A stretch of 64,000 nt of DNA from Candidatus Saccharimonadales bacterium (GTDB lineage Bacteria; Patescibacteriota; Saccharimonadia; Saccharimonadales; UBA4665): the NCBI GenBank assembly GCA_036276195.1, contig DATBED010000042.1:1044-65043 (forward strand), read 5' to 3'. Shown in pieces: positions 2,547-42,535 of this stretch. The position numbers and the translations under genes are program-made. Below the pieces are notes generated by a model. It searched no databases, had not been told where the DNA came from, and saw nothing but the letters and a program-made list of their open reading frames with translations. Every line of letters begins with the position of its first letter. Positions within the stretch are counted from its first letter, which is position 1.

Positions 2547-2692
2547 TTTTGAGTTTTTCACGAAATTCTGTTAATCGGCAAATCTCTAAGGTGTTAAAAT
2601 AAACAGTTTCACAAAATTCCGTTAAAAACTCAAAATGCCGAAAACGTTCAACCAAGAACCCTGTTGTAAATTTTAAGGGTTTAGAGGCGGCC
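2547..2692. repeat. copy A of a 3-copy intergenic element (two 18-bp quasi-palindromic boxes at 2557-2574 and 2608-2625)
   Basis: Near-identical to 22066-22208 and, as reverse complement, to 18241-18335. It lacks the cccccg/cggggg module of copies B and C. Confidence 0.85.
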
Positions 2693-2742
2693 AAGGCGCC
2701 GGCCTGGCCGGATGGTATGTGGATTTGACATTGGTGGCAGCG

Positions 2743-2771
2743 ATGACAGCCGAGGCTGATCCTGCTATACT
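2743..2771 (+). promoter_or_regulatory. candidate sigma70-type promoter for the virB4 genes
   Basis: ATGACA 2743-2748, 17-nt spacer, TATACT 2766-2771. Confidence 0.35.
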
Positions 2772-2806
2772 AACCATAAACGAAAAGGTGGGCGCCGTCA
2801 GCGAAC

Positions 2807-3901
2807 ATGAATCCTCAAACAAATAATCCAGACCCCTTGGCAAACGGGCAGCCGGTGGCTGTGCCTTTTCAGCCTGGCGAGGTTTCGATTCAACCGGCCG
2901 GCTTGCCGCGTGCCGAAGGTCAGCGCTTCGCGGCGCCGATTAGCTTTAGTGGACCAATAAGTACCGGTGAGCCGGTCATTCCCATCCAGCCGCCAGCCCA
3001 GCCGTTGACTGTGCCATTGCCGCCGCCAGTGATCCAGCCCCACACCCTGGCACCACCGGTGCCGGTTGGTGGTGTCATGCCGGAGCGGCCAGGCCCGCCT
3101 TCGCCGCCGCAACCGGTGGCCACTCAAGCCGCGTCGCCGCAGGCCAAAACCGGTACTGGCGGTACGCCGCCGGTCCATTCGCACAGCACCCAAAACTCTC
3201 TGCAAATCGCTGAAATTCGCGACGGCATCGTAATCATGAGTGACGGATCATTTAGAGCAGTGCTAATGGTTAAAAGTATCAACTTCGATCTGATGAGCCA
3301 GCAAGAGCAAGAGGCGGTGGAGTATTCCTACCAGGGCTTTTTGAACTCGCTGTACTTTCCGGTTCAGATCTTTATTCGCTCGCAAAAGGTCGACCTGCAG
3401 CCCTACATTGAGAAGCTAGATAAAATCCGAACCGAGCACGACAACATGTTGCTGGCGCTGATGATGGAGGATTATATCGGCTACATTGATGCCCTTAGCC
3501 AACAGACCAACATCATGGACAAGAAGTTTTACATTGTGGTTCCTTTCTTCCCTGTGGTTGACGCCCAGCAGGCGCTGACCCAAAGCAAGAACTTCCTAAC
3601 CGGCTTGGGCAGCCTGTTCAACAAGCAAGACAAGCACGTGGTGATCAACGAGGCCGATCTGGAAAACGCCAAAACCGAGCTGCGCAACCGGGTGCAGGCG
3701 GCGCTGGCCGGCTTGCAACAGTGCGGTATTCAAGGCCTGCCGCTCGACACCCAAGAGCTGATCGAGCTGTATTACGACTCTTACAACCCCGACACGGCTA
3801 CCCGCCAACAGCTCAAGAATTTCGACCATTTGACGGCCGACATTGTCACCAAAGGGCAGGGCGCCGCACCGCAGGCCCACTTGCAGAGGGAGCTTAACTG
3901 A
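2807..3901 (+). CDS. VirB4 N-terminal-domain-like protein without P-loop, proline-rich N-terminus
   Basis: 364 aa. The first ~140 aa are Pro-rich. The segment IAEIRDGIVIMSDGSFRAVLMVKSINFDLMSQQEQEAVEYSYQGFLNSLYFPVQIFIRS resembles the N-domain of Gram-positive VirB4/TraE proteins. The stop overlaps the next ATG (TGATG). Confidence 0.45.
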   Translation: MNPQTNNPDPLANGQPVAVPFQPGEVSIQPAGLPRAEGQRFAAPISFSGPISTGEPVIPIQPPAQPLTVPLPPPVIQPHTLAPPVPVGGVMPERPGPPSPPQPVATQAASPQAKTGTGGTPPVHSHSTQNSLQIAEIRDGIVIMSDGSFRAVLMVKSINFDLMSQQEQEAVEYSYQGFLNSLYFPVQIFIRSQKVDLQPYIEKLDKIRTEHDNMLLALMMEDYIGYIDALSQQTNIMDKKFYIVVPFFPVVDAQQALTQSKNFLTGLGSLFNKQDKHVVINEADLENAKTELRNRVQAALAGLQQCGIQGLPLDTQELIELYYDSYNPDTATRQQLKNFDHLTADIVTKGQGAAPQAHLQRELN

Positions 3902-5844
3902 TGCTTGGCAAGAAGAAGCAAGCGGTCGACCCGGTGGCTGTGGCCCAAGCCCAGCGGGCCCGTGAAGAACAAGAAGTGCAGGCCGCTTTTCAAAAGGGCA
4001 TTACGGCGCTACGCGACTTTATTGCACCGAGCTCGCTGGAGCTTAAAAGCACCTACTTTCAGCTGGGCACGCGTTACGCCCGCACTTTTTACGTGTTTGG
4101 CTACCCGCGCCAGGTCTACACCGGCTGGCTAAGCGGCCTGGTTAACGTTGACGAGGTGGTCGACATTAGCATGTACATTTACCCGGTCGAAAGCCAGGTG
4201 GTACTAGAGAACCTGCGCAAGAAGGTGACGCAGCTGGAGGCCGGCATTCAAATCGACAGCGAGAAGGGGCGGGTGCGCGATCCGGCCAAGCAGGCCGCCA
4301 TTCTCGACGCCGAAGAAATGCGCGACAAGCTGCAGGTCGGCGAAGAACGCTTCTTCCGTTTTGGCCTGTACTTCACCTTGTACGCCGGCAGCATGGAAGA
4401 GCTGGAGTTCGTCTCTCATAAAGTCGAGTCAATGCTCGGCCAGCAGCTGGTTTACAGCAAGCCGGCCACTTCGCAGCAGGAGCAGGGCTTGAACAGCACC
4501 GTGCCGCAAATGGTCGACCAGCTGCAGATCCGCCGCAACATGAGCACCGGCGCTTTGAGCACCAGCTTTCCCTTCACCAGCGCCGACTTGTCGCAAGACA
4601 CCGGCATTTTGTACGGCATCAACATGCACAACTCCGGTCTGGTTATTTTTGACCGCTTCTCGCTGGAAAACGGCAACTCGGTGGTCTTCGCCAAGTCGGG
4701 CGCCGGCAAGTCGTTCCTGGTTAAGCTGGAAGCATTGCGCAGCATGATGTTCGGCACCGAAATTTTTATCATCGACCCCGAGAACGAGTACCAGCGCATG
4801 GCTGACGCCGTTGGCGGCGCTTACGTGCGTCTTAGCTTGAACTCTTCCACCAGGATTAACCCGTTTGATTTGCCGAAAGTAGTTGACGCCGAAGAAGCCG
4901 ACAACGCCTTACGATCTAACTTGATCACGCTGCATGGGCTACTGCGCCTAATGATGGGCGGCGCCCAGATTCAGATGCAAGGCGGCGGCATGATGCCGGC
5001 CCTGGCGCCCAGCGAAGAAGCCGACCTCGACGCCGCGCTAATCGAAACCTACGCTAAAGCCGGCATCACCAACGACCCGTTAACGCACACCGCCCAGCCG
5101 CCGACCATCGCCGACCTCTACGACACGCTGCTGCACATGGGCGGCACCGGCCCGCAGCTGGCGCAGCGCCTGCGCAAGTACACCAGCGGCACCTTCGCCG
5201 GCATTTTCAGCCAACAGAGCAATATCGACATCAATAATCCGCTGGTGGTGTTCAACCTGCGCGACCTGGAAGACGAGCTGCGCCCTGTCGCCATGTATAT
5301 TGTGCTGAACTTTATCTGGAACAAGACCAAGGCCGACCAAAAACGTCGCTTGCTGGTGGTCGACGAGGCCTGGCAGCTAATGAAGTACGAGGATTCGGCC
5401 AACTTCTTGTTCTCGCTGGCCAAGCGGGCCCGTAAGTACAACCTGGGCATCACCACGGTGACGCAAGACGTCGAAGACTTTATGGGCTCGCGCATGGGCC
5501 GGGCGATTGTGGCCAACGCCTCAATGCAGTTCTTATTGAAGCAGTCGAGTTCGGCCGTCGACGTGCTGACCGATGTTTTCAAGTTAACTAGCGAGGAGCG
5601 TAAGCGTCTTAGCCAGTTCCCGGTCGGCCAGGGCCTGTTTTTTGCCGGCCAGAACCATGTGCACATTCAGGTGGTGGCCAGCCCGACCGAGACATCGCTG
5701 ATCACTACCAATCCGGAGCAGGTCCAACAGATCAATGCTGCCGCGGCGGCCGGCCCGGCAGCGGCCGGCGAATTCAACCAGCCGACCGGCACGATCGACC
5801 TGGGCAACCGCCTGGCGCCCGGCAGTTCCGGCACCAGCGCTTAA
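3901..5844 (+). CDS. virB4: VirB4/PrgJ/TrsE-family type IV secretion ATPase
   Basis: 647 aa. Walker A is VFAKSGAGKSF and Walker B is RRLLVVDEAWQLM. The N-domain FQLGTRYARTFYVFGYPRQVYTGWL is typical of Gram-positive VirB4. Confidence 0.85.
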   Translation: MLGKKKQAVDPVAVAQAQRAREEQEVQAAFQKGITALRDFIAPSSLELKSTYFQLGTRYARTFYVFGYPRQVYTGWLSGLVNVDEVVDISMYIYPVESQVVLENLRKKVTQLEAGIQIDSEKGRVRDPAKQAAILDAEEMRDKLQVGEERFFRFGLYFTLYAGSMEELEFVSHKVESMLGQQLVYSKPATSQQEQGLNSTVPQMVDQLQIRRNMSTGALSTSFPFTSADLSQDTGILYGINMHNSGLVIFDRFSLENGNSVVFAKSGAGKSFLVKLEALRSMMFGTEIFIIDPENEYQRMADAVGGAYVRLSLNSSTRINPFDLPKVVDAEEADNALRSNLITLHGLLRLMMGGAQIQMQGGGMMPALAPSEEADLDAALIETYAKAGITNDPLTHTAQPPTIADLYDTLLHMGGTGPQLAQRLRKYTSGTFAGIFSQQSNIDINNPLVVFNLRDLEDELRPVAMYIVLNFIWNKTKADQKRRLLVVDEAWQLMKYEDSANFLFSLAKRARKYNLGITTVTQDVEDFMGSRMGRAIVANASMQFLLKQSSSAVDVLTDVFKLTSEERKRLSQFPVGQGLFFAGQNHVHIQVVASPTETSLITTNPEQVQQINAAAAAGPAAAGEFNQPTGTIDLGNRLAPGSSGTSA

Positions 5845-5847
5845 GCC

Positions 5848-5877
5848 TTGCAGGCGTGCATCGTTTTGTAGTACAAT
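5848..5877 (+). promoter_or_regulatory. promoter of relB/yafQ cassette
   Basis: TTGCAG 5848-5853, 18-nt spacer, TACAAT 5872-5877, then ATG 9 nt downstream. It begins immediately after the left direct repeat. Confidence 0.4.
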
Positions 5878-5886
5878 GTATGCACT

Positions 5887-6168
5887 ATGAATAGTACGGC
5901 CCTGACCATCAGAACCGATCCTAAGACCAAAAAGGCCATAGCAGACTTTGCGGCCTCTGTTGGCCTGTCTACCAGCGCCTTCGCGACGGCCATCCTTAAG
6001 CAAGCCGTGCGGGAGGGCCGTGTGGTATTAAGTCCTGCTCTGGAACCCACGCCGTATCTAGAGAAAATCATGCGTCAAGCAGATAAGGACATAAAGAAAG
6101 GCACAAACCTATCGCCGGTATTCGACTCGGTTGATGACATGTTCGATCACCTTGAAAAGACTGCCTAA
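5887..6168 (+). CDS. RelB/DinJ-family antitoxin
   Basis: 93 aa. The N-terminal RHH-like segment is LTIRTDPKTKKAIADFAASVGLSTSAFATAILKQAVREGR. Architecture resembles DinJ. Confidence 0.7.
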   Translation: MNSTALTIRTDPKTKKAIADFAASVGLSTSAFATAILKQAVREGRVVLSPALEPTPYLEKIMRQADKDIKKGTNLSPVFDSVDDMFDHLEKTA

Positions 6169-6173
6169 AAGTC

Positions 6174-6431
6174 ATGAAGGTGCGCTATCTTAAATCTTTC
6201 CAAAAGCAAGTAGTAAAGCTGCAACCGGCCCAAACTAACCGGCTCAAAGCTGCGCTGTTGCTGTTCCAGATCGAACCAGACCACCCAGACCTTTACAATC
6301 ATCCTCTTACTGGTAACTGGGCGGGTTATCGCTCGATTGCCTTCGGAGGAGACTTACGGGCGCACTACAAAATGGTTAACGACATTGCGGTTTTCGTGGC
6401 TTGCGGCAGACACAGCCAGCTCTATAAATAG
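6174..6431 (+). CDS. YafQ/RelE-family mRNA interferase toxin
   Basis: 85 aa. It carries the HPLTGNWAGYRS motif typical of YafQ/RelE-type toxins and starts 5 nt after the antitoxin. Confidence 0.7.
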   Translation: MKVRYLKSFQKQVVKLQPAQTNRLKAALLLFQIEPDHPDLYNHPLTGNWAGYRSIAFGGDLRAHYKMVNDIAVFVACGRHSQLYK

Positions 6432-6548
6432 CTCCGCGCCCGGCAGCTCCGGCACCAGCGTTTAAGCCGGCCTTCAGACAAGGGTAAACTCGACCGTTTT
6501 AAGGTATAATGGTAAACGTAAGAATTAAGACTTAGGTGAAAAACCAAC

Positions 6549-9500
6549 ATGGCAAATCAGGTCTATGACCCCAGGGCCGACGAAGAACGTGCACCAGAAT
6601 CTGATGATCTAAGCCCAGAACACGGCGCCGCAGCCGGCAAACCTTATGATCCGCGTGGCCACGATGTCGCGGCCGGTAACTCATCTGACCCTCGCGGGGA
6701 CGGACTTAGTGATGTCCGACAAGCCGAAAATAGCCCCGGCCTTTATAACCCAAAGGGTGACAAAAGCGAAAACCCAAGCGGCCTCAAGGGTTCTGAGGAA
6801 TCAACTGGCGGAGGCGACACCGTTGGGAGTGGCTACAACGACGACAAGGAACCAACCAAAAGACAAAGAGCTAAGGCGGGTTGGGCCATACTCAAAAATC
6901 GCAAAGTCCTTGTTGGGGGTGGTAGTGGCATCATAATTAGCGTAATCGTAGCTTTTCTATCTCTAAGCTCTGGTCCGCTGGAGTTTATTCACATTGCCCA
7001 GCTGCTCGAAAAGTTCCATTTCTCGGCCCAACAAGACGGTGAAGCCAGCCGACTTATGAAAATAGCTCGCTTCATTAACGACCCGTCAAAACCTCAAAAC
7101 ACCCGTCTAGGCATAATAGGCAATGCAGTAGCTAACAATTTGGAGGCCAAGATTCACGACGCCACCGGCCTAAATAATAAGTACAATAGCCAGACTGGTA
7201 AGTTTGAGGGGTACTCAGTTGACCCGAAACATGAAAACTTTAAAGATAAGACCAACCAGCAAATTATAGACGAGCTCGTAAGCACCTACGGCATAAACGA
7301 ATCACAGATTACCTTAACGCCCCAGATAAAAGGGGCGCCAGAAGTTAGCTTTAACCCGGATACCGGCGGTTCGGCTTTAAATCCTATAAACACCGTAAAG
7401 AGTTATCGTAACCAAACCGGCTTTGCCCGTTCTTTACTGGGGAAAGCAGGCTTGAGCAAGGTTTCAGCCTGGGCCGGCACCAGGGTACTAACCAAAAGAG
7501 CTGGCTGGACCTTTCACCCGATAAAGGCACTAGATTCGGCGTATCAGCAACAGCTTTTAAAAGGCGGCAAGAAGGTGTTTGATAAGCTTAAAGAGCAGTT
7601 CAATAGTCAAGAGACTAGCTCAATAGCTAGTGACACCACCGCCCCCCCAAGTACGCCAGAAAACAGTAATGAACAAGGTCCAAATGGCCAACCCGCAAAT
7701 GACTCTAACAGAACGAGTGCGGCCAACGCCGGCAATAGCGTCCAAGCCGATCCATCCGAGACTAATGTTAAGGCCAAGATTGCAGGTGGCGGCGCCGCCT
7801 TAGTTGGTGTTGCCTGTGTCATGCATGGCATTGATGAAAGCGTTCCGAAATTAAGGGAAGCGAAGGTTATATTTCCTATGATGGAATTTGCCGGCCAGTT
7901 TATAAGTCTTGGCAGCCAGGCGCAAAGCGATCAAGACATAACCACGGCCCAGCTTGGCTTATATAAACCGTTCCTAGATGGCACCAACAGCCAAGGCCAG
8001 GTTACTTCAACCTGGAATCAAGCCCAGAGTATCCAGGCCGAGCTTGGCGAGCCGCAAAACGGCCCTGATCTTCCTAAGAGCGCTCAAGTGTTTAACGCTG
8101 GGGTGCCCTTCGGATTTATCGATGGAATTCCCGGGCTGGGCGGCATTTGCAGTATTTTGGGAAGTCCACTTGGCCAAATTGCTGGCACAATCCTTTCGCC
8201 TTTCGCAACGGCCTTTCAGTCAGTTGCGATCGGACCATTAATCTCGGATTTTACCGGTTGGTTATCTGGTGTGCCGATAGACATTCTTAAAGGTGCTGGT
8301 GCTGTGGATGGTAACTACATTAACTACGGTGCCAGGGCTGCGGCTGACCAGCAGTATGCCTCGGCGGGTGGCACGACCATGAGCTCAAGCGACGAGTCCA
8401 ACCTAAAAAATACGACTGTGGCGCTCGATAACAAGGATTTCCAATCAAAAAGCCTGGCTTATCGTATCTTTAATCCCGACGACGCTCAGAGCCTGGCTTC
8501 TAATATTATGGATAATTATGGCTCGAGCGGCATTGCTCAAGGCTTTGCCAGCATGTTCCATAGTTTTGGCAGTATATTTACGGCCGCTTTAAGGGTGCCG
8601 GCTACTCTATTCTCTGGCATTACGCATGCCGCAAGCCAGCCTTATGATTACCATGGCTTGCAGAAGGTTGGCTTCACGGCGGCCGACTTAGCTAATCCGC
8701 TGTTTGATAATTCGTTTCAAAATGGCTGTGATGTAACAGGTGGATGTAAAAAGCCAGATGGCACGCCGGTTGGCCCCACAATAAGCCAAAGCGTCCTAGG
8801 AGATCCGGCGAATCCAAACCAAGCAAACAAAGACGTAATTACCAAAGTTAATACCTGTTTTGGCGACACGATCTCTAATGACGGCACTATGTGGAACATT
8901 GACTACGGCTCAGCGCCCCTGGACATGTATAGCGACGCTTACACTTCAGCTAATTGCGACAGCCATGACACGTCGTGGATGCGCGTTCGCTTCTGGATAC
9001 TCGATACCCAAACCTTGGAAGGCTATGACTGCAGCCAAAGCAACTCCTCGACAGCCGACCAATCTTGCACGGACATTGGCTTCAACACCTCTGGATCAGG
9101 CAGCAGCTCAACTACCACAGCCCCGACAGCCTCCAGCCCCGCACCTACGGGTAGCGCAAAAGATTTGGCCGCACAGCTCCTACCTTACATTAGTCAGAAA
9201 AAAATATCTTGTAATAACCAAGCTAGCGACTGCCCCGACATTCAAAATACAGCTAATGGTGTAAGTATAAAAGGTGGACAGGGCTGCCAAGTCGATTCAC
9301 TACAACCAGGATTATTGGGCATGTTATTAAAGCTAGTGCAGATGGGTCATACGTTTGTTCTTTCGGCAATATGTAGTGATCATTCTAATGATGGCTTGGG
9401 TGGACATGCTGGTGGTCGAGCGGCTGATTTCAATATAATTGATGGGGTGTTTATGGGGCCCGACGATGTGCCCTGGGACAGTACAAAAATTGCAGCTGGA

Positions 9501-9647
9501 CAAAAACTTGATCAAGACATCGCCTCATTCATGCCTAAAAGTACCGGTTTTGGCCAGATACAGTGCCACCCAGCTTTCCCTTTTTTGAGCGGCTTTAATA
9601 CTTTTAACGACACCTGTCATCACCAACACATACAAGTAGAGAACTAA
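6549..9647 (+). CDS. large membrane protein with C-terminal LAS/M15-type zinc peptidase (cell-wall hydrolase) domain
   Basis: 1032 aa. A disordered N-terminus with DPRG repeats is followed by a TM segment (GGSGIIISVIVAFLSLS). The C-terminus has GHAGGRAAD (H-x6-D) and HHQHIQV (H-x-H), as in M15/VanY-like peptidases. Confidence 0.55.
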   Translation: MANQVYDPRADEERAPESDDLSPEHGAAAGKPYDPRGHDVAAGNSSDPRGDGLSDVRQAENSPGLYNPKGDKSENPSGLKGSEESTGGGDTVGSGYNDDKEPTKRQRAKAGWAILKNRKVLVGGGSGIIISVIVAFLSLSSGPLEFIHIAQLLEKFHFSAQQDGEASRLMKIARFINDPSKPQNTRLGIIGNAVANNLEAKIHDATGLNNKYNSQTGKFEGYSVDPKHENFKDKTNQQIIDELVSTYGINESQITLTPQIKGAPEVSFNPDTGGSALNPINTVKSYRNQTGFARSLLGKAGLSKVSAWAGTRVLTKRAGWTFHPIKALDSAYQQQLLKGGKKVFDKLKEQFNSQETSSIASDTTAPPSTPENSNEQGPNGQPANDSNRTSAANAGNSVQADPSETNVKAKIAGGGAALVGVACVMHGIDESVPKLREAKVIFPMMEFAGQFISLGSQAQSDQDITTAQLGLYKPFLDGTNSQGQVTSTWNQAQSIQAELGEPQNGPDLPKSAQVFNAGVPFGFIDGIPGLGGICSILGSPLGQIAGTILSPFATAFQSVAIGPLISDFTGWLSGVPIDILKGAGAVDGNYINYGARAAADQQYASAGGTTMSSSDESNLKNTTVALDNKDFQSKSLAYRIFNPDDAQSLASNIMDNYGSSGIAQGFASMFHSFGSIFTAALRVPATLFSGITHAASQPYDYHGLQKVGFTAADLANPLFDNSFQNGCDVTGGCKKPDGTPVGPTISQSVLGDPANPNQANKDVITKVNTCFGDTISNDGTMWNIDYGSAPLDMYSDAYTSANCDSHDTSWMRVRFWILDTQTLEGYDCSQSNSSTADQSCTDIGFNTSGSGSSSTTTAPTASSPAPTGSAKDLAAQLLPYISQKKISCNNQASDCPDIQNTANGVSIKGGQGCQVDSLQPGLLGMLLKLVQMGHTFVLSAICSDHSNDGLGGHAGGRAADFNIIDGVFMGPDDVPWDSTKIAAGQKLDQDIASFMPKSTGFGQIQCHPAFPFLSGFNTFNDTCHHQHIQVEN

Positions 9648-9651
9648 ATAA

Positions 9652-12138: not shown

Positions 12139-12160
12139 TGCAATATAAGTGGAGGCTCTT

Positions 12161-13474: not shown

Positions 13475-13486
13475 TGTCTCTACGCT

Positions 13487-14542: not shown

Positions 14543-14585
14543 TCCTTAATTAAACCACGTTATATGCTCTAGCAACTTGACTAAG

Positions 14586-14614
14586 TTGACTTAGTTAAGT
14601 TGATTTGTTATACT
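14586..14614 (+). promoter_or_regulatory. promoter of phd/vapC, leaderless geometry
   Basis: TTGACT 14586-14591, 17-nt spacer, TATACT 14609-14614, then ATG 7 nt downstream. Repeated GACTAAGT/ACTTAGT motifs are present. Confidence 0.55.
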
Positions 14615-14621
14615 GCCTTCT

Positions 14622-14882
14622 ATGAAAGCTATCCCTATCCACGAAGCTAAAGCTAATTTGAGCAAGTATATTCAGCAGGCCAAGGCCGGCAAGCCCGTTT
14701 ATATTGGCGCCCGCGGCGAAACCGAGGTGGTACTTACCGCCGTTCCTAAAAAGAAGTCCGGCAGCAGCTTATGGGGCAGTATGAAGGGCCAGTTTAATTA
14801 TAGCGATGAGGAGTGGGACAAAGCTACGCGCCTTGTAAATGAGGATTTCGAAAAGAGCGAGATCTTTCCCGATGCTGATTGA
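14622..14882 (+). CDS. Phd/YefM-family antitoxin
   Basis: 86 aa. MKAIPIHEAKANLSKYIQQAKAGKPVYIGARGETEVVL is the Phd/YefM N-terminal pattern. It is a paralogue of 25405..25659. Confidence 0.75.
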   Translation: MKAIPIHEAKANLSKYIQQAKAGKPVYIGARGETEVVLTAVPKKKSGSSLWGSMKGQFNYSDEEWDKATRLVNEDFEKSEIFPDAD

Positions 14883-15264
14883 CACCCATATATTGGTCTG
14901 GATTCTGGAAAGCAAATTGGCTAAGCTTGGTACTCTGGCTCGGGATAACATCAATAATCAGCCGATTGTGGTATCTGTTGCCACACTAATAGAAATAGCT
15001 GTAAAAAAACGCAAGGGCAAGCTAGACGCACCCGATACCTTAACTATTTTAGCTAACTTAGCATCTAATAATATTGAGGTACTAGATATTCAGCCGGGGC
15101 ATGTTATCAACCTGCCGAGTTTAGAGACTATAAAGCACGCCGACCCATTTGATTTGCTCCTAATTTCTCAGTCCGTTTCCGAGAGTCTTCCTTTTTTGAC
15201 TTCTGACTCTAAGATTCTTGGAGCTTATATTCCGAACTTGCGGCTGATCGACGGCCGACGCTAG
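14872..15264 (+). CDS. PIN-domain VapC-family toxin
   Basis: MLIDTHILVWIL..., with the DPFDLLLISQS motif. ATG 14872 overlaps the antitoxin stop by 11 nt. The track start at 14839 was rejected. Confidence 0.75.
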   Translation: MLIDTHILVWILESKLAKLGTLARDNINNQPIVVSVATLIEIAVKKRKGKLDAPDTLTILANLASNNIEVLDIQPGHVINLPSLETIKHADPFDLLLISQSVSESLPFLTSDSKILGAYIPNLRLIDGRR

Positions 15265-16352
15265 CTCTTGAGGGGCATGATGATGTGCTTGTAGTCGGGG
15301 TCGCCAGGGCTCTGTAAGAGGGTCGGCTCCAGTTTGCCGTTAAAGCTAAATACTACTCCGTCGCCCAACATAACAGACAGCGCGTCAAGCAAATAGCGCG
15401 AGTTAAGGGTTATATTGCCATTGCCGATAACTTTGGCTGGCGCCGTGGCGTTATTCTCACCCAGTTGCGAAGCGGCCGAGCGGATACTAAGCTGCTGCTT
15501 GGCTTCGTCTAGCTCGATAGTGACACTGCCGGCACTTTCGCGGGCAAACAAGCTGGAAACTTTGGTTACACTAACTAAGTCGGCCTTTTTAAGGCTGGCT
15601 GTAGTGGCAAAACTACTAGGGATTAGTCTTTGGTAGTCCGGATATTTACCGTCAATCAACCGGGTAACCAGCTCGACGTCTCCAGCCTTGAATAGGGCCT
15701 GCTGGTCGTCGTGAGTGATGTTGATGTCGGCTTCATCATCTCCTAAAGTTCTGAGCAAGTCATGCATAGCCGAAGCTGGCACCAATAGTTTGATGTCTTG
15801 TTTTTGGGGGCCTAACTGTTTTTCGGCTAAACGATAGCTGTCGGTGGCGGCCATGTGTAATTTGCCGTCGATAGTTTGTAGTAGTACTCCTGTTAAGACC
15901 GGCCGCGTTTCATCATTACTGGCGGCAAAACCGATTTGTTGTAGCGCCCGTTTGAAAGTCACACCATCAACCTTCCATTTATTTCCGCCTTCAATAGCCG
16001 GCATGACCGGAAAATCATCAGCCAGTATGCCGTTAATTACCGACTGGTATTGGTCGGTGTTAATATGCAACTTGGTATCTTTTAGCTCGATATTTATCAC
16101 GCCGTCTGGCAGGCTGCCCACAAAATCTTGCGTTAGGCGGGCCGGTACGGTAATCGAGCCTTCGGTTGAGACTTTGGCACCAATGAAGTGGGTAATGGCA
16201 ATGTCTAGATTGGTGGCCGATAGGCTTAAGCGGTTCTGGCTGGTACGGATTAGAACATTAGCTAGGATTGGCAGCGTTCCACGGCTATTAGCCACTTTGG
16301 CTACGGAGTTTAAGGCGCGGTTTAGGTTTTCGCGGGTAACTTGCAGTTTCAT
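15261..16352 (-). CDS. dnaN: DNA polymerase III beta sliding clamp
   Basis: 363 aa. MKLQVTRENLNRALNSVAKVANSRGTLPILANVLI is the typical DnaN N-terminus. It sits downstream of dnaA. Confidence 0.9.
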   Translation of the reverse strand: MKLQVTRENLNRALNSVAKVANSRGTLPILANVLIRTSQNRLSLSATNLDIAITHFIGAKVSTEGSITVPARLTQDFVGSLPDGVINIELKDTKLHINTDQYQSVINGILADDFPVMPAIEGGNKWKVDGVTFKRALQQIGFAASNDETRPVLTGVLLQTIDGKLHMAATDSYRLAEKQLGPQKQDIKLLVPASAMHDLLRTLGDDEADINITHDDQQALFKAGDVELVTRLIDGKYPDYQRLIPSSFATTASLKKADLVSVTKVSSLFARESAGSVTIELDEAKQQLSIRSAASQLGENNATAPAKVIGNGNITLNSRYLLDALSVMLGDGVVFSFNGKLEPTLLQSPGDPDYKHIIMPLKS

Positions 16353-16413
16353 AATAGCTCCTTGTTACTATTAATTATTAAAGAACTTAGTAGTAGCTTG
16401 TTATAGGGCCTGT

Positions 16414-16561
16414 GTATTCTGGGTAAAAGAATACTGCCAACAGATGGAAATTCACTTAATTCATAGTGGAAAAGCCCTAGTAAAACCAGGCCGTATTCTT
16501 GGGTAAAAACCAGCCAGTTAGCCACAACCAGCCTGAATGGTTTTAGTGGGCCTGTGGCTAA
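16414..16561. promoter_or_regulatory. DnaA-box-like cluster between dnaA and dnaN (possible second oriC half)
   Basis: agtggaaaa at 16465-16473 is TTTTCCACT on the minus strand. TTAGCCACA at 16518-16526 has an inverted copy, tgtggctaa, at 16553-16561. A direct repeat GTATTCT(T)GGGTAAAA occurs at 16414 and 16493. AT-rich sequence lies at about 16366-16400. Confidence 0.45.
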
Positions 16562-16616
16562 GCCCGGGTTTATACCAGCACCATTCAACAACTTAAACCT
16601 GGCTTTTGCACAGCTT

Positions 16617-17993
16617 TTACGCATATAAATGCTCCCTGATTTCGCTAATAGCCATACGCAAGCTGGCATCGACCCGGGCCTCTCTATCGATTTTACCAAC
16701 CGAATGGATGGCTGTGGTGTGGTCTTTGCGGCCTAGTTCCTTAGCAATTTTAGGGAAGCTCAAGTTGAGCTCGTTGCGCAGGATGTACATGGCTACCTGG
16801 CGCGGCACCACAATATCTTTATCGCGCTTTGGCCCGACAATATCTTCGACTGGGATCTGGAAGTGGCGAGCCGTCCGCTCGATTATTTGTTTAGCGCTTA
16901 GGTGTTTCGGCCGAGCTTTACTGACATTCAACAGGCTAGTGGCAATAGATATGGTGGGGTCTAGGCCACGCATTTCACAAAAGGCTAACAGTTGGTTTAG
17001 GGCGCCTTCCAGCTCACGGATATTGGTCTGGATGTTGGCGGCCAGGTACTCGACTATTTCATTCTCTAAGTCGGTGCCATGGCTGCCGGCTTTGGTCTGC
17101 ACAATCGCGCAGCGCGTTTCAAAGTCGGGGATCTGCATATCTATGGCCATGCCGCCGCCAAAGCGCGATTTCAGCCGGTCTTCAAGCCCAACAATATTAC
17201 TGGGCGGCTGGTCGGAGCTCATGATAATCTGCTTATTGGCCTGATGTAGCGTGTTGAAGGTATGGAAGAACTCATCCTGGATTTTATCTTTACCAGCCAG
17301 GAATTGAACGTCGTCAACAATTAATACATCGGCGGATCGATAATAGTGGGCGAAGTCGGTGGCCGTGCGGCTGCGCAAGGCGGCCACGAACTCTTGTACG
17401 AACTGCTCGGTGGCAATATACAGGATGTTAGCTTGCGGTGCCCTGGCCTGCAGCGCGTTGCCGACCGCCTGGATCAAATGAGTCTTGCCAATGCCGACCC
17501 CGCCATAAACGTAAAACGGGTTGTAGCGGGTGCCCGGCCGCTGGACTATCGCCTGGCAAGCGGCAAAAGCCAGCTCGTTACCATCGCCAACTACGAAATT
17601 TTCTAGAGTGTAGCGTTCGTTCAAAGCTGGCCGGAAGTTCCTAGGCCCGGCCTGGGCCGGTCGCTCTAAGCTATGTTGCCCAACGCTTACGGCCGGCTGG
17701 GCAGCCTCTTCGGGTTTGGGCTGTTCATCGGTTTTCCGCCCAGCGTGGCCCGGCATCATCTTATAGGCGATCTCTTTAACTTCTACGCCTTGCTTCTTAA
17801 GCGTCTCGGTAATCACGCTGGCGTATCTTTTCTCGAGGGTATTACGCACGAAAGGGTTATTAACGCCAATGACGACCCGGCCTTCCTCTTGTTTGAGCAG
17901 CTGAGTATTTTTAAACCAAGTGACGTAGTTAGCATGCGATAGACTAACTTCCAGCTCGCCTAAAACAGCCTGCCAAACAGCATCCTTTTGCAC
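16617..17993 (-). CDS. dnaA: chromosomal replication initiator DnaA
   Basis: 458 aa with a GTG start and GGAGG 7 nt upstream. Walker A is GGVGIGKTHLIQAVGN, and the C-terminal DNA-binding helix is DHTTAIHSV. Confidence 0.95.
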   Translation of the reverse strand: MQKDAVWQAVLGELEVSLSHANYVTWFKNTQLLKQEEGRVVIGVNNPFVRNTLEKRYASVITETLKKQGVEVKEIAYKMMPGHAGRKTDEQPKPEEAAQPAVSVGQHSLERPAQAGPRNFRPALNERYTLENFVVGDGNELAFAACQAIVQRPGTRYNPFYVYGGVGIGKTHLIQAVGNALQARAPQANILYIATEQFVQEFVAALRSRTATDFAHYYRSADVLIVDDVQFLAGKDKIQDEFFHTFNTLHQANKQIIMSSDQPPSNIVGLEDRLKSRFGGGMAIDMQIPDFETRCAIVQTKAGSHGTDLENEIVEYLAANIQTNIRELEGALNQLLAFCEMRGLDPTISIATSLLNVSKARPKHLSAKQIIERTARHFQIPVEDIVGPKRDKDIVVPRQVAMYILRNELNLSFPKIAKELGRKDHTTAIHSVGKIDREARVDASLRMAISEIREHLYA

Positions 17994-18041
17994 CTACGCC
18001 TCCTCTTCTGTAGGGATTGAGTATAGACTACAAACGAAAGG

Positions 18042-18165
18042 TTTTCCACAGAGACTTTTATAATTTAATCAGGATTTAATGGTTAGGCCAAACGGAGGTC
18101 GGGTTTTCCACAGTTATGCTTCCTATCTGTTAATCTGTGGATACTACCGCGGTTTTCGTGGATAA
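18042..18165. promoter_or_regulatory. oriC-like DnaA-box cluster upstream of dnaA
   Basis: TTTTCCACA at 18042-18050 and at 18104-18112. tgtggatac at 18136-18144 is GTATCCACA on the minus strand. cgtggataa at 18157-18165 is TTATCCACG on the minus strand. An AT-rich stretch lies at 18051-18085. Confidence 0.7.
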
Positions 18166-18240
18166 CCAAGCCGCGATTGCGGGGTAAACATTGTTAAAAC
18201 CACATACCCTTGTTGGCGTACGGCTGCATCTCTGTGCCCG

Positions 18241-18400
18241 TTTTCAGCCTTTTTAGTTTTTAACGGAATTTTGTGAAACCGTTTATTTTAACACCTTAGG
18301 GATTTGCCGATTAACAGAATTTCGTGAAAAACTTAAAACCAGTAATTCTTTAGATAAAATGCCCCCGTTGTAGAAAAGTCTTGGCACGTCTTCGGGGGAG
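18241..18400. repeat. copy B of the 3-copy element (boxes 18260-18277 and 18311-18328), inverted relative to A and C
   Basis: The reverse complement aligns almost base for base with 22004-22160, including the cccccg-N26-cggggg hairpin module. It lacks the aaccct/agggtt module. Confidence 0.85.
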
Positions 18401-18435
18401 TCGGCCGCTTAAGAGCAGTGATTAATGATGTCGGA

Positions 18436-18464
18436 TTTACAAACAGGGGTGAATAAGGTACAAT
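18436..18464 (+). promoter_or_regulatory. rpmH promoter, leaderless geometry
   Basis: TTTACA 18436-18441, 17-nt spacer, TACAAT 18459-18464, then ATG 6 nt downstream. No SD. Confidence 0.55.
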
Positions 18465-18470
18465 CGCTTA

Positions 18471-18608
18471 ATGCCCAAAGGAACTTATCAGCCCAAGAAA
18501 CGATCACGCTCACGCGAACATGGCTTTATGAAGCGCATGGCTACTCGAGCCGGCCGCTCGGTGCTCAAGCGCCGCCGCACTAAGGGCCGCGCCAAGCTAA
18601 CAGTTTAG
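18471..18608 (+). CDS. rpmH: 50S ribosomal protein L34
   Basis: 45 aa, translated by hand: [45 protein letters not shown]. It is below the ORF-track size cutoff. Confidence 0.9.
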
Positions 18609-18621
18609 GATTAGCCGCTAT

Positions 18622-18966
18622 ATGATAATGCGGCGCCACCGCTTTCATGGCTACGGCAGCCTGAAAAGCACCTACAGCCGCGGCCAGACCGTCCGTGGCG
18701 GTCTAATTAGTTTGAGATTTGCCCGGCGTGACCCGGGCCGGCCCTACCGGGTGGCCGTGGTGGTCAGCCGCAAGGTCAGCAAATCGGCCGTCATCCGTAA
18801 CCGCATCAGGCGGCGTATCTATGAAGCCATCCGACGCCAAGCGGCCAGTATTGCCCCCGGCACCGACCTTATTTTCACGGTTTACGGTGAACAGCTGGCT
18901 ACTATGGAGGCCGCCAAGCTGCAGAGCCTAGTGGCCGAGCTATTGCAAAAAACCGCCAAACCGTAG
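18622..18966 (+). CDS. rnpA: ribonuclease P protein component
   Basis: 114 aa. VVVSRKVSKSAVIRNRIRRRIYEAIR is the RnpA RNR motif. It follows rpmH. Confidence 0.8.
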   Translation: MIMRRHRFHGYGSLKSTYSRGQTVRGGLISLRFARRDPGRPYRVAVVVSRKVSKSAVIRNRIRRRIYEAIRRQAASIAPGTDLIFTVYGEQLATMEAAKLQSLVAELLQKTAKP

Positions 18967-19004
18967 GCGGCAACACCGGTCAAATGGTATAGTATAGCCT
19001 AAGC

Positions 19005-19943
19005 ATGTTTACGACGTTAATAGTCAAACCGATTTTTAACCTATTGGTGCTGATTTATGCCGTCTTGCCGGGCCACAACTTCGGCCTGGCCTTGATCATA
19101 TTCACAATAGTTGTACGCCTCTTAATGTGGCCACTGGTTAAGAAGCAGCTGCACCAGGCCAAAGCCATGCGTCAGTTGCAGCCGGAGATCAAGCGCGTCA
19201 AGCAGGCCGCCAAGGGTAACCGCCAGCAAGAATCGCTGATGATGATGGAACTGTACAAAGAGAAGGGCATAAATCCTTTCTCTACCTTCCCAATACTGAT
19301 TGTTCAGTTGCTGATTTTGATCGGCCTCTATAGCGGCCTACGCCGGGTAATTACCGATCCGCACGCCATTATCAGTTTTGCCTACCCCGGGCTACAGCAT
19401 CTGAGCTGGTTAAAGCAGTTATCACACAACATCCACCGGTTCGACAACACCCTGTTCGGCGTGGTTGATCTTAGCCGGGCGGCGCTAGGCAAAAGCGGTG
19501 TTTACTGGCCGGCTATGATCATAGTGCTCGGCAGTGCCGTAGCCCAGTTTTATCAAAGCAAACAGCTGCTGCCAGACACTAAAGACCAGCGCGGCCTGCG
19601 CGACATCTTGCGCCAGGCCAGTAGCGGCAAACAGGCCGACCAATCCGAGGTTAACGCCGCCGTGGGCCGCAGCACCCGCTATCTGTTGCCGGTGATGATT
19701 TTTATTTTTACGGTTAATATTGCTTCGGCGCTGAGCCTGTACTGGCTGGTCGGCGGTATCGTGGCCTATATTCAGCAAGCTATTGTGCTACGAGGCGACG
19801 AGACCGAAATGGAGGCTATCGCCGACAAACCGTCGAAGAATGTCAAAGACATTCCTGAAGCCGAGGTCGTAGAAATACCAACCGCCGCTAAAGCCGCTAA
19901 GAAATCCTCCAAAAAGAAGTCGGCTAAGAGGAGGAAGCGATGA
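19005..19943 (+). CDS. yidC: YidC/Oxa1-family membrane insertase
   Basis: 312 aa with multiple TM segments, the motif LLMWPLVKKQLHQAKAMRQLQPEIKRVK and a basic C-terminal tail. Canonical rnpA-yidC-jag order. Confidence 0.85.
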   Translation: MFTTLIVKPIFNLLVLIYAVLPGHNFGLALIIFTIVVRLLMWPLVKKQLHQAKAMRQLQPEIKRVKQAAKGNRQQESLMMMELYKEKGINPFSTFPILIVQLLILIGLYSGLRRVITDPHAIISFAYPGLQHLSWLKQLSHNIHRFDNTLFGVVDLSRAALGKSGVYWPAMIIVLGSAVAQFYQSKQLLPDTKDQRGLRDILRQASSGKQADQSEVNAAVGRSTRYLLPVMIFIFTVNIASALSLYWLVGGIVAYIQQAIVLRGDETEMEAIADKPSKNVKDIPEAEVVEIPTAAKAAKKSSKKKSAKRRKR

Positions 19944-20407
19944 ACGGTTCCATGGAGGAAGCCATTTTGTTCGCCAAAAAGTACCTGGAAGACCTGCTGT
20001 CTTTCTTTGGCCTGAACACCGATGTTCAGGCCACCAGCGACGACGAAGTCATCCAGCTCAATGTGCCCAGCAGTCACATGAACGGCTTTTTAATTGGCCA
20101 GCGCGGCGAAAATATGCGCTCCCTGCAATATCTGACCGGCACGGCTCTTAAAAATAACGATTACGAACACACCAGGGTGAACGTCGATATTGCCGACTAT
20201 AAAAAACAGCGGGCCGATCGCTTGCGCGACAAGGCCGAGGGCTGGGTCAAGCAAGTGCAGAGCAGCGGTCAGCCGATGGACTTAGAACCAATGAACGCTG
20301 CCGACCGCCGTGTGGTCCACCAGCTGGCGGCCGACTACGGCCTGACCAGCGATTCCGTTGGCGAGGGCCGCGACCGCCACATTGTGCTCCAACGGGTCGA
20401 AGACTAG
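19940..20407 (+). CDS. jag: Jag/KhpB-like RNA-binding protein (KH + R3H)
   Basis: 155 aa. FLIGQRGENMRSLQYL is KH-like and MNAADRRVVHQLAADYGLTSDSVGEGRDRHIVL is an R3H motif. Confidence 0.7.
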   Translation: MNGSMEEAILFAKKYLEDLLSFFGLNTDVQATSDDEVIQLNVPSSHMNGFLIGQRGENMRSLQYLTGTALKNNDYEHTRVNVDIADYKKQRADRLRDKAEGWVKQVQSSGQPMDLEPMNAADRRVVHQLAADYGLTSDSVGEGRDRHIVLQRVED

Positions 20408-21924
20408 TCCAGCCGGCCCACGTTACGCAACGGCGTTTTAATTAGGATGAAGGGCTTGACTGCTTGTTGTGCCAGCTCATTCAGTCGGACTATAGCCTTA
20501 TTTTGCCAGTACCAGTTATGGTTGCTGTCGATTATGTAAGTCAAGGCGCCACCACCCTGCAGGAATAAAACTAATGCCGCTAAGGCCAGAGCCATTTTTA
20601 GACGGACACGGTTGCCGAGCGATTGTCGTAAGGCCAGCGCCAAGATAAGCAGTATGGGCAGGGCAACAGGGAAGATATAGCGGCCCTGGATGGCAAACTT
20701 TTGGCCAAAGCGCAGGTAGTCGTGGTAATTATGCAGCCATAGTATACCGGCGTAAGTGAAGCTAACGAACAACAAAAACTCCAGGTGTTCATAGCCCTTG
20801 AAGAGGGCTTGCCGGTAGCGGATAAATAATATGGCGCCTAGCCCAAATACCGCCAGCGCGGCGCCAAAAATCAAGGGCAAGGGGTTAACGTTCAAATAAT
20901 TGGCCTGCGGGCCAGCGCCACCGCTATTAGTAAAGAACAGGGCGACGAACATGCGGTAAGTCCAACTAGTAGCAAACACTACCGGGTCAGAGTTAACCGG
21001 ATCCCTATGGGCCAATGCGTTTTGCGTTCTTACCCAGTTGGAGTTGGTAGAGCACTGCTGGGCGGTTAAGACCTGGCCGCACGAGGGCGTCAGGGTGTGG
21101 TAGCGAATCAGGTTGATGCCGAACATCTGGAAGGATAGGTAAAGGGCCAAGGTCACCGGCAAGAAGCCGACGGACTTACTAACCCAACTTGATTGCCGCC
21201 AGCTCTTAGCCGCCAGCGTATCTAAACGAAGCCCCCCGGCCTTTACCGCCCTGAACAGCTGCCAGGCCAGCCACGCTACTATGGCCACAAAAATTGGCAG
21301 GAACTCGACTTGGACCAAGCTGGCCAGTAGGCACAGCGCCAGCAGCCAAGCGGCGCGCAGGGCGGGTAACTTTCCTTGCCGCAAGCTATCGTTAATGGTC
21401 AAAGTCAGCAATAGTGTTAGTGCCACCAGCGGCATCAGCATATTATCGTAGTTAATCTCGCCCGCCAACAGCGGTACCACCGGTGTTAGCACAAAGAAAA
21501 GCAAGGTAGCGTGCACAATAGCCGGCGACACTTTAGTTTTAAGCAGTAGCCGACGGAATAATACCAAACCGCCACCAAACAAAAAGATATTAATAAAACG
21601 CAAATCTATAACTTGGATCATCTGGTCGCTGGTAACGGCCGCGATCAGGCGGTAAGGGAAGCTCATCAGGTAGTGGTAAAGGAATGACGGGTCGCGCACA
21701 ATAGCGCCGGCCGCATCGGTAGCCGCCAAGTGGGCCGGCAAAAAAGGCCCCCATTGGTGGGCATACATTTGGATAATCCCAAAATGGGTATTTTCGTCGA
21801 AAACCATGGGGTAGACGGCCGAAAAAGCTATCCAAACCGACTCTATAAAAAACAAGATTAATATGGCCGCGAAAAATTGCGGCGAACGCAGGATTTTTAG
21901 GATCTTTGTTTGCAAATTAACCAT
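20404..21924 (-). CDS. polytopic membrane protein, GT-C (ArnT/PMT-like) glycosyltransferase candidate
   Basis: 506 aa with about 12 TM segments. An FDENTHF acidic motif sits in the first extracytoplasmic loop, as in GT39/GT83-type enzymes. Confidence 0.5.
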   Translation of the reverse strand: MVNLQTKILKILRSPQFFAAILILFFIESVWIAFSAVYPMVFDENTHFGIIQMYAHQWGPFLPAHLAATDAAGAIVRDPSFLYHYLMSFPYRLIAAVTSDQMIQVIDLRFINIFLFGGGLVLFRRLLLKTKVSPAIVHATLLFFVLTPVVPLLAGEINYDNMLMPLVALTLLLTLTINDSLRQGKLPALRAAWLLALCLLASLVQVEFLPIFVAIVAWLAWQLFRAVKAGGLRLDTLAAKSWRQSSWVSKSVGFLPVTLALYLSFQMFGINLIRYHTLTPSCGQVLTAQQCSTNSNWVRTQNALAHRDPVNSDPVVFATSWTYRMFVALFFTNSGGAGPQANYLNVNPLPLIFGAALAVFGLGAILFIRYRQALFKGYEHLEFLLFVSFTYAGILWLHNYHDYLRFGQKFAIQGRYIFPVALPILLILALALRQSLGNRVRLKMALALAALVLFLQGGGALTYIIDSNHNWYWQNKAIVRLNELAQQAVKPFILIKTPLRNVGRLD

Positions 21925-22003
21925 AAGCTATCTGTAATCCATTATAAACCTTAGCAACAAGCATTGTGTGACTCTTTGCTTAAGGGTTGCTGATGGTGCC
22001 TAC

Positions 22004-22208
22004 TCCCCCGAATATACGTCAAGACTTTTCTACAACGGGGGCATTTTATCTAAAGAATTACTGGTTTTAAGTTTTTAACGGAATTTTGTTAATCGGCAAA
22101 TCCCTAAGGTGTTAAAATAAACAGTTTCACAAAATTCCGTTAAAAACTTAAAAGGCTGAAAGCGTTCAACTAAGAACCCTGTTGTAAATTTTAAGGGTTT
22201 CGGCGGCC
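22004..22208. repeat. copy C of the 3-copy element, the most complete copy (boxes 22075-22092 and 22126-22143)
   Basis: It contains the cccccg/cggggg module, both boxes (which form a perfect 19-bp inverted repeat here) and the aaccct-N13-agggtt module. Positions 22166-22208 overlap the 3' end of the GT4 gene. Confidence 0.85.
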
Positions 22209-42420: not shown

Positions 42421-42535
42421 ATTAAGTGTAGCTTAACCCATTAATATATACAGAATTGATTTTTTGTTGGTTGTCTGCTCATGTGCGGACGGCGGTTTGG
42501 TTTTACATAAAACCTCACGTAAACTTAATTTTAAT

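Follow-up and report, generated by a model that had tools for sequence, protein, structure and literature searches.

We analyzed a 64-kb window (64,000 nucleotides, the whole stretch of DNA studied here) from Candidatus Saccharimonadales (Saccharibacteria, candidate phyla radiation [CPR]) and characterized a short dispersed repeat that occurs in it in three copies, designated A, B and C. The host is represented by a metagenome-assembled genome (MAG) only, of which one contig was covered. In the window, YidC and the TraC-like protein match proteins of a Candidatus Saccharimonadales MAG at 100% identity. Pfam annotation identified a type IV secretion system (T4SS) cluster of the Gram-positive/CPR type, with PrgI-like, TraC-like and VirB4-like ATPase genes and a gene for a lysozyme/GDSL protein. 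This cluster is followed by a recF-like gene, dnaN and dnaA on the minus strand, by rpmH, rnpA, yidC and jag on the plus strand, and then by a 506-aa open reading frame (ORF) and a GT4 glycosyltransferase gene on the minus strand, beyond which lies a long envelope-polysaccharide cluster. The origin was placed by the dnaA-dnaN pair, the DnaA boxes and the divergent rpmH-rnpA-yidC-jag genes; GC skew was uninformative at the scale of the window. Copy A was found inside the T4SS operon between the PrgI-like and TraC-like genes, copy B between the DnaA-box cluster (one-mismatch boxes at 18042, 18104, 18136 and 18157) and the rpmH promoter, 31 nt upstream of the latter, and copy C between the 506-aa ORF and the GT4 gene. 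The original prediction had copy B directly adjoining the DnaA boxes; it is indeed near the cluster, but a gap of 74 nt separates it from the nearest DnaA-box-like site. Distances between the copies are 3.6 and 15.6 kb, their orientations are mixed, and dnaA, dnaN, rpmH and yidC lie in between.

The extents of the copies were determined by blastn and local alignment. Copies B and C shared 167 nt at 93% identity (18405-18239 and 21998-22164), copies A and B shared 100 nt at 94% (2547-2646 and 18338-18239), and copy A shared positions 2547-2697 with 22065-22212 of copy C. In the 100-nt core common to all three, pairwise identity was 91-94% and 10 of the 100 positions were variable. The copy-versus-copy E-values of 1e-55 to 1e-68 exclude chance similarity, and the three-copy repeat is genuine, as had been predicted. 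The shared core of ~95 nt described earlier also exists, but its length is 100 nt, and an inverted repeat with 28-nt arms within it had been overlooked. Neither blastn nor nhmmer with the --max option found a fourth copy within the window. The unit measures ~167-175 nt and consists of a 67-nt left module, an 89-nt quasi-palindrome and an 11-nt tail (Table 1); the left end of copy A is exactly the first base of the palindrome stem. Every copy has its own substitutions and unique flanks, and the same junctions were matched in JGI contigs Ga0376674_0006604 and Ga0376674_0001208 (sample 3300036800) as well as in two Logan unitigs of SRR11842680 (L011 and L013), two sources that may come from the same sampled community. 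The Logan unitigs stop within the repeat. We also noted that B and C, 93% identical over 167 nt, are inverted relative to each other around the 3.6-kb rpmH-rnpA-yidC-jag-506-aa segment next to oriC, which homologous recombination between them could invert, and that the direct copies A and C flank 19.5 kb holding dnaA and dnaN.

Table 1. Positions of the repeat copies, their parts and neighboring features in the 64-kb window.
Feature	Position	Strand	Basis or remark
Copy C, full unit	21998-22164	+	B/C local alignment, 167 nt
Copy C, left module	21998-22064	+	B/C alignment
Copy C, core quasi-palindrome	22065-22153		Inverted-repeat search
Copy C, tail (11 nt)	22154-22164	+	B/C alignment
Copy C, CCCCCG-N25-CGGGGG stem in left module	22005-22041		Fold: 6-bp stem, 25-nt loop
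Native GT4 glycosyltransferase 3' end (stop and 15 codons)	22166-22212	-	Conserved C-terminus; Pfam GT4
Copy B, full unit, inverted	18239-18405	-	blastn and local alignment
Copy B, core arms	18311-18338 and 18250-18277		Inverted-repeat search
Copy B, CCCCCG-N25-CGGGGG stem	18362-18398		Same fold test as for copy C
Copy A, core only, without left module	2547-2646	+	blastn and local alignment
Copy A, GT4-tail pseudo-fragment	2647-2697	+	~90% of alignment columns match C; two small indels
Copy A, overall, including gene-tail fragment	2547-2697	+	blastn and local alignment
dnaA	16617-17993	-	Pfam Bac_DnaA, DnaA_N, Bac_DnaA_C
DnaA-box-like cluster upstream of dnaA	18042-18165		One-mismatch TTATCCACA sites; conserved in element-free relatives
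rpmH promoter-like site TTTACA-N17-TACAAT	18436-18464	+	10/12 promoter-scan matches; rpmH ATG at 18471

We then compared the three loci with those of relatives that were found through YidC and TraC-like homologues. These sequences, ~141 kb from at least five Saccharimonadales genomes, have the same gene order, and their YidC proteins are 83-87% identical to that of the window. The original prediction had proposed searching relatives for the core; blastn and nhmmer --max found no copy of the repeat in the ~141 kb, and all three sites were empty in the syntenic sequences (L014/L015, L016/L017, L020, L023 and L025). At site A, the spacer between the PrgI-like and TraC-like genes is 307 nt in the window as against 21 nt in L020 and 51 nt in L025. 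The dnaA-rpmH spacer at site B is 477 nt in the window and 266-272 nt in L016 and L023, and at site C the 241 nt between the 506/508-aa gene and the GT4 gene compare with 66 nt in L014 and with overlapping genes in L023. In the alignment of site B, the element fell between two conserved features, the DnaA boxes and the rpmH promoter. The promoter-like site, which ends 6 nt before the rpmH ATG, is kept in L014 and partly in L016. As a separate observation, this promoter-to-ATG spacing in the Saccharimonadales clade suggests a leaderless rpmH mRNA. Since the sites are empty in the relatives, all three copies are lineage-specific insertions, and the empty orthologous sites leave no case for a conserved function as an origin, centromere or small RNA (sRNA). 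An origin-linked role, as a centromere, a nucleoid-protein platform or a conserved sRNA, had been among the suggestions made for the repeat; it is contradicted by relatives that have the same gene order and keep their DnaA boxes but lack the element at all three sites, and no parS-like sequence was found within three mismatches.

The original prediction had further described the repeat as modular, with one hairpin in B and C and another in A and C. The first, given as cccccg-N26-cggggg, is indeed common to B and C, but its spacer is 25 nt and its stability is that of shuffled sequence: in both copies and on both strands the hairpin was no more stable than shuffles (z of -0.3 to +1.0). A structural module or terminator was thus rejected (z near 0, and no terminator-like site in the element). 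Derivation of the left module from the rpmH promoter, considered for a TACAAACAGGGG-like motif, was also discarded, the similarity being not significant. Both A and C do contain the second hairpin, aaccct-N13-agggtt, but this is GT4 coding sequence, co-copied into A, and not a part of the element. The GT4 stop codon occupies 22166-22168, and the motif falls inside the coding DNA at 22169-22212. The C-terminus of the window protein reads ...AAETLKIYNRVLS before the stop (also given as ...KKYSWQSLAAETLKIYNRVLS), and those of the relatives read ...AEQTLAVYRKVLAA (...KYSWQRTAEQTLAVYRKVLAA) and ...AEQTLAVYNQALSD (...KYSWQRMAEQTLAVYNQALSD); because the C-terminus is conserved in the orthologues, 22169-22212 is native GT4 coding sequence. 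The codons for ETL...RVL give rise to the apparent hairpin as a by-product. The description of all copies as intergenic therefore does not fully hold for C, where the aaccct stretch shared with A lies in the GT4 coding sequence.

This assignment also gave the direction of copying. The homology between B and C ends at 22164, two bases short of the GT4 stop, and that between A and C runs 48 nt beyond 22164, across the stop and 15 codons, to 22212. Since copy A carries the native GT4 tail, A was copied from locus C and not the reverse. At the other side of copy C, the left flank (reverse complement GGCACCATCAGCAACCCTTAAG) was similar to the last codons, the stop and the downstream sequence of the L014 GT4 orthologue (p<0.0005), which indicates that C inserted within the last 2-3 ancestral GT4 codons and supplied a new stop. 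Copying of B from C together with its flank was examined as well and not supported (flank similarity p 0.45).

The core of copy C is an 89-nt, AT-rich quasi-palindrome with 28-nt arms (TTTTAAGTTTTTAACGGAATTTTGTTAA at 22065-22092 and TTCACAAAATTCCGTTAAAAACTTAAAA at 22126-22153) around a 33-nt loop (22093-22125). Its arms are 96% complementary, with 27 of 28 positions paired, and a small dyad, TTAAC-N8-GTTAA, can be read in every core arm. RNA folding on the plus and minus strands of the element, with z-scores against shuffled sequence, gave -31.8 and -31.0 kcal/mol for copy C (z -6.5 and -6.0), -17.3 and -26.1 kcal/mol for copy A (z -2.4 and -4.2) and -14.0 and -18.8 kcal/mol for copy B (z -0.8 and -1.6). 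The hairpin is thus excellent in C and decayed in B, and this uneven quality among the copies argues against uniform purifying selection for RNA structure. At core positions 13, 17 and 22, which lie in one arm, A has the state of B and C differs, and all three C states restore pairing. Since copy A derives from locus C, these changes in C postdate the copying of A. Three clustered changes that all improve an inverted repeat are diagnostic of template switching within the molecule at a quasipalindrome, which is known to yield such arm-perfecting changes (PMC7202029), and they imply that the hairpin forms in DNA in vivo.

The ends of the copies were also compared. The B/C unit has the termini GCCKACTCC... 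and ...GGCTGAAARCG, which do not form inverted repeats. Its 28-bp inverted repeat lies internally, with homology extending 67 nt beyond it on one side and 11-59 nt on the other. The copied segments themselves differ, being 21998-22164 in B and C and, in C coordinates, 22065-22212 in A. Alignments of junction against junction at B and C were indistinguishable from shuffles (p 0.54-0.63), so that the target-site duplication which had been tied to a plain MITE (miniature inverted-repeat transposable element) was found at neither. The hexamer CTTAAG, which lies close to the left end in B as well as in C, was considered as a target or target-site duplication; it was rejected, with 23 occurrences observed in the window against 22 expected, and it is native at site C. 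Filler DNA without a detectable donor accompanies the insertions, with 47 and 109 nt at A, ~30-40 nt per side at B and ~8-12 nt per side at C. The sequence after copy C is CG/TTC, which is GTTC-like and is also found at A, copied from C, and that after B is GGCA. At the other end the flanks of B and C differ (TAAGCG versus GATGGT).

We searched for homologues and for a family to which the repeat might belong. Rfam returned zero matches at the gathering thresholds over the whole window; in E-value mode it listed only generic microRNA-precursor hairpins of at most 29 bits, compared with thresholds of 44-211 bits. Matching of the 19-mer core loop to 185,579 GTDB genomes gave six chance matches of 19-24 nt, and a degenerate 22-mer covering both arms gave two chance matches in coding sequence among JGI metagenome contigs. 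Two scans of viral contigs and a distant-mode blastn search of plasmids and phages had no match; these DNA collections evidently do not include the source genome. Chance ORFs of the element compared with a 5.8-billion-protein database yielded no further copy candidate. Among the Pfam annotations of ORFs in the window there was no transposase or integrase and no Y1-transposase-like match. The absence of a known family, of a transposase and of terminal inverted repeats, all noted earlier from the letters, was therefore borne out by Rfam, by Pfam and by the comparison of ends. An origin of the repeat from a tRNA was rejected, as the window holds no tRNA. Full-text searches of the literature turned up no account of repeats of this type for Saccharibacteria or Patescibacteria. 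To our knowledge, such elements are essentially undescribed in Saccharibacteria.

These results identify a previously uncatalogued repeat family in one Saccharimonadales lineage. We consider it a young, lineage-specific, non-coding dispersed repeat that most likely spread by transposase-independent ectopic copying, a reading to which we assign a probability of about 60%. The hairpin would form in single-stranded DNA at a replication fork or during break repair and cause stalling or breakage, which would be followed by synthesis templated from a nearby donor; in this way the long palindrome would drive ectopic copying over short distances in the absence of a transposase. We favor templated copying because the ends are irregular, the break in copy A is at the stem base and filler DNA is present, and we infer this mechanism from two events. 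The later perfecting of the copy C palindrome by three coordinated substitutions fits this account too. In all likelihood the repeat, whose core is prone to form hairpins, is a young insertion of a selfish or neutral kind that serves no selected function. It may have side effects: it could place a stable RNA hairpin in the transcript of the T4SS operon, and upstream of rpmH and the 506-aa gene it could add spacing or a weak promoter-like site that points outward. Among the candidates originally offered, a novel non-autonomous mobile element came nearest to the evidence, and the sRNA, centromere and nucleoid-platform readings did not hold up.

Several observations weigh against this interpretation. 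The mechanism rests on two events, and no donor was found for the filler DNA. Only three copies on one 66-kb contig are visible, and many further copies, a master element or a transposase could reside elsewhere in the MAG. The relatives, having no copy, offer no source of the unit either. Copies B and C share their orientation and lie directly upstream of conserved promoters. In the stem, copy A has a double compensatory change at core positions 5 and 85, from A-T to G-C, which could reflect selection on the stem; in copy B this pair is lost. Finally, the stems of A and B pair better on the minus strand of the element by means of G-U pairs (26/28 and 25/28, versus 24/28 and 23/28), which hints at a role as RNA. 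Together with the single compensatory pair, the G-U pattern leaves a small opening for such a role.

A second explanation is an end-asymmetric non-autonomous transposon, IS91-like (rolling-circle) or IS200/IS605-like and mobilised in trans, with copy A arising by read-through into the flank; we regard this as possible although the odds are against it. In IS91 and IS200/IS605 elements the absence of terminal inverted repeats and target-site duplications is normal, and co-mobilisation of donor flank is typical of read-through by IS91/ISCR and Helitron elements. The lack of both features here and the donor flank carried by A would thus be accounted for, and insertion polymorphism at three of three sites, the recent spread implied by 91-94% identity and the hairpins near both ends of the B/C unit agree with such an element. 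The CG/TTC after copy C also resembles the GTTC target of IS91, but the flank of B at the same end is GGCA, and the flanks at the other end differ from each other. In addition, the two hairpins share no sequence relationship, the GC hairpin lacks significance, copy A has lost sequence at one end and gained it at the other so that neither is precise, and no transposase is encoded in the 64 kb. Plasmid, phage and viral collections held nothing related, and the genome and metagenome scans gave chance matches only.

A more specific form of the preferred ectopic copying would be a palindrome-driven, transposase-free local copy-paste that takes flanks such as the GT4 tail along and is concentrated around oriC, where dispersal would be favored because sister forks and multiple genome copies are closest there. 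We think this rather unlikely; if true, it would mean repair-based proliferation of repeats in a streamlined CPR genome with few mobile-element genes.

It is also improbable, in our judgment, that the repeat is a recently recruited cis-regulatory element or sRNA gene, for example an RNase III-type hairpin or an outward promoter for rpmH, the 506-aa gene and the T4SS operon. The hairpin is strong in C and, on the minus strand, in A, and the compensatory pair in A and the G-U pattern that favors one strand would suit this view, but the B hairpin does not exceed shuffled sequence in stability, and three copies give almost no power to detect covariation. B and C do have the same orientation relative to their downstream genes, and a promoter-like TTAAAA-N16-TAAAAT inside the unit aims at those genes. 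On the other hand, this match is weak (9/12) in a region with 6 such sites against 3.8 expected, and copy A, which has no promoter-like part, is oriented opposite to the gene downstream of it. The absence of the repeat from all relatives examined, of a terminator and of an Rfam family also speaks against regulation.

A component of the origin or of segregation, such as a centromere-like site or a nucleoid-protein platform, is very unlikely. It was suggested by the location of all three visible copies within ~16 kb of dnaA, with B 74 nt from the DnaA boxes, and by the TTAAC-N8-GTTAA dyads of the arms. However, dnaA, the DnaA boxes and the rpmH promoter are all retained in relatives that have no element, no parS lies within three mismatches, one copy is in a gene tail and another inside an operon, and boundaries differ between copies; the apparent clustering comes from one contig. 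Least credible of all are chimeric joins or a duplicated read-through in the assembly. The MAG source and the breaks of Logan unitigs inside the repeat might suggest such an artefact, but a true repeat breaks unitigs in just this way, the copies differ in their substitutions and have unique flanks, and the same junctions recur in separate JGI contigs and Logan unitigs.

We compared the repeat with known systems. In a survey of 613 prokaryotic species, 97% carried species-specific repeats, mostly shorter than 200 bp and low in copy number, and about one quarter were tied to mobile elements (PMC3372372). The repeat resembles these species-specific short dispersed repeats (Koressaar and Remm 2012, PMC3372372) in being shorter than 200 bp, in having few copies in one lineage, in lacking detectable homologues in other species and in showing no demonstrable tie to a mobile element; unlike that descriptive category, insertion polymorphism, the direction from C to A and a palindromic core are resolved here. 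It departs from a classical MITE, as terminal inverted repeats, a target-site duplication and precise shared ends are all missing. MITE-like palindromic repeats include Correia/NEMIS elements of Neisseria, ERIC/IRU of enterobacteria and the Rickettsia palindromic elements (reviewed in PMC3184786). In common with these, the repeat is ~100-170 nt long and non-coding, has a long inverted repeat, internal or terminal, of ~26-28 bp that forms a stable hairpin, occupies intergenic, operon and gene-end sites and may alter gene ends and transcripts. It differs from them in its lack of a TA or other target duplication, in an inverted repeat that is not placed at the termini, in homology extending beyond the inverted repeat on both sides, in its inconsistent ends, donor flank and three copies, and in having no sequence similarity to them.

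Other comparisons were less close or touched on the mechanism alone. Repetitive extragenic palindromes and their mosaic elements (REP/BIME) are GC-rich palindromes of ~20-40 nt, high in copy number and associated with a RAYT gene, whereas here the unit is 167 nt with an AT-rich palindrome of 89 nt, three copies are seen, and the window gave no Y1-transposase-like match. Elements derived from IS200/IS605 have related subterminal hairpins at both ends and a constant short target motif 5' of the left end, but the hairpins of the repeat are unrelated to each other and the flanking motif is not constant between B and C. The lack of terminal inverted repeats and target-site duplications, the hairpin near one end and the co-copying of donor flank are shared with IS91/ISCR and Helitron elements; unlike in those, no Rep/HUH transposase is found in the window, no constant GTTC/CTTG occurs at B and C, and copy A is truncated at the other end. 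The imperfect ~100-nt palindrome, which in copy C directly follows a stop codon, the AAC...GTT arms and the ~90% identity recall integron attC sites and Vibrio cholerae repeats, but the window has neither a cassette array nor an integrase, the copies are in mixed orientation with essential genes between them and occupy sites inside an operon and beside oriC, and the stem irregularities are mismatches, unlike the extrahelical bases of attC. The three arm changes that turn mismatches into pairs in copy C parallel quasipalindrome template-switch mutagenesis (PMC7202029). That process is not known to spread copies to new loci, and its extension to ectopic copying is our own suggestion.

The importance of the finding is modest. 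The empty-site controls show a small repeat family arising and moving in an ultra-small CPR genome, and the co-copied GT4 tail fixes the direction of one copying event. The perfecting of the C palindrome indicates that DNA hairpins form in vivo. Insertions beside oriC and the rpmH promoter, within a T4SS operon and in the final codons of a glycosyltransferase gene were tolerated. For the annotation of similar repeats, hairpin "modules" at a repeat edge may be flanking coding sequence, and clustering around the origin on a single contig is not evidence of origin function.

Gene tails were duplicated at another place in the window as well. A toxin-antitoxin (TA) cassette at 5887-6431, composed of a 93-aa ORF and a YafQ-family toxin gene, lies just after the VirB4-like gene and is flanked by a 33-nt direct repeat of the VirB4 tail and stop (5815-5847 and 6436-6468, 94% identical). 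In L020 and L025 the VirB4 tail is single and the cassette is absent. This suggests that gene-tail duplication at insertions may recur in the genome. The density of type II TA modules, which are scattered among the core genes near the origin, is very high (RelE/MqsA, YafQ, several PIN/PhdYeFM and PIN/MazE pairs and a PemK/MazF toxin), and their presence and position vary between close relatives, including L012 and L018. In L018 a PhdYeFM/PIN pair is located just upstream of rnpA, in the dnaA-rnpA interval that holds copy B in the window.

The slot between jag and the GT4 gene is variable among the relatives. The 506-aa ORF downstream of copy C (20404-21924, minus strand) has no Pfam domain; its counterpart in L014/L015 is 508 aa long, L023 has a 676-aa ORF instead, and L016 and L021 lack it. 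A second 506-aa ORF at 60221-61741 was considered as a paralogue and found to be unrelated. Between dnaA and dnaN there is a small conserved ORF (16349-16699, minus strand) with counterparts in L016 (7513-7788) and L014 (7583-7837), 84-91 aa long in the relatives and without a Pfam domain, and DnaA-box-like sites at 16518 and 16553 fall inside or beside it. Further along the window, a 147-nt inverted repeat (42106-42252 and 42704-42850, 76% complementary) was found at the 5' ends of two divergent YfhO-family membrane protein genes (40180-42420, minus strand, and 42464-44794, plus strand), which is better read as the inverted duplication of a gene than as a mobile repeat.

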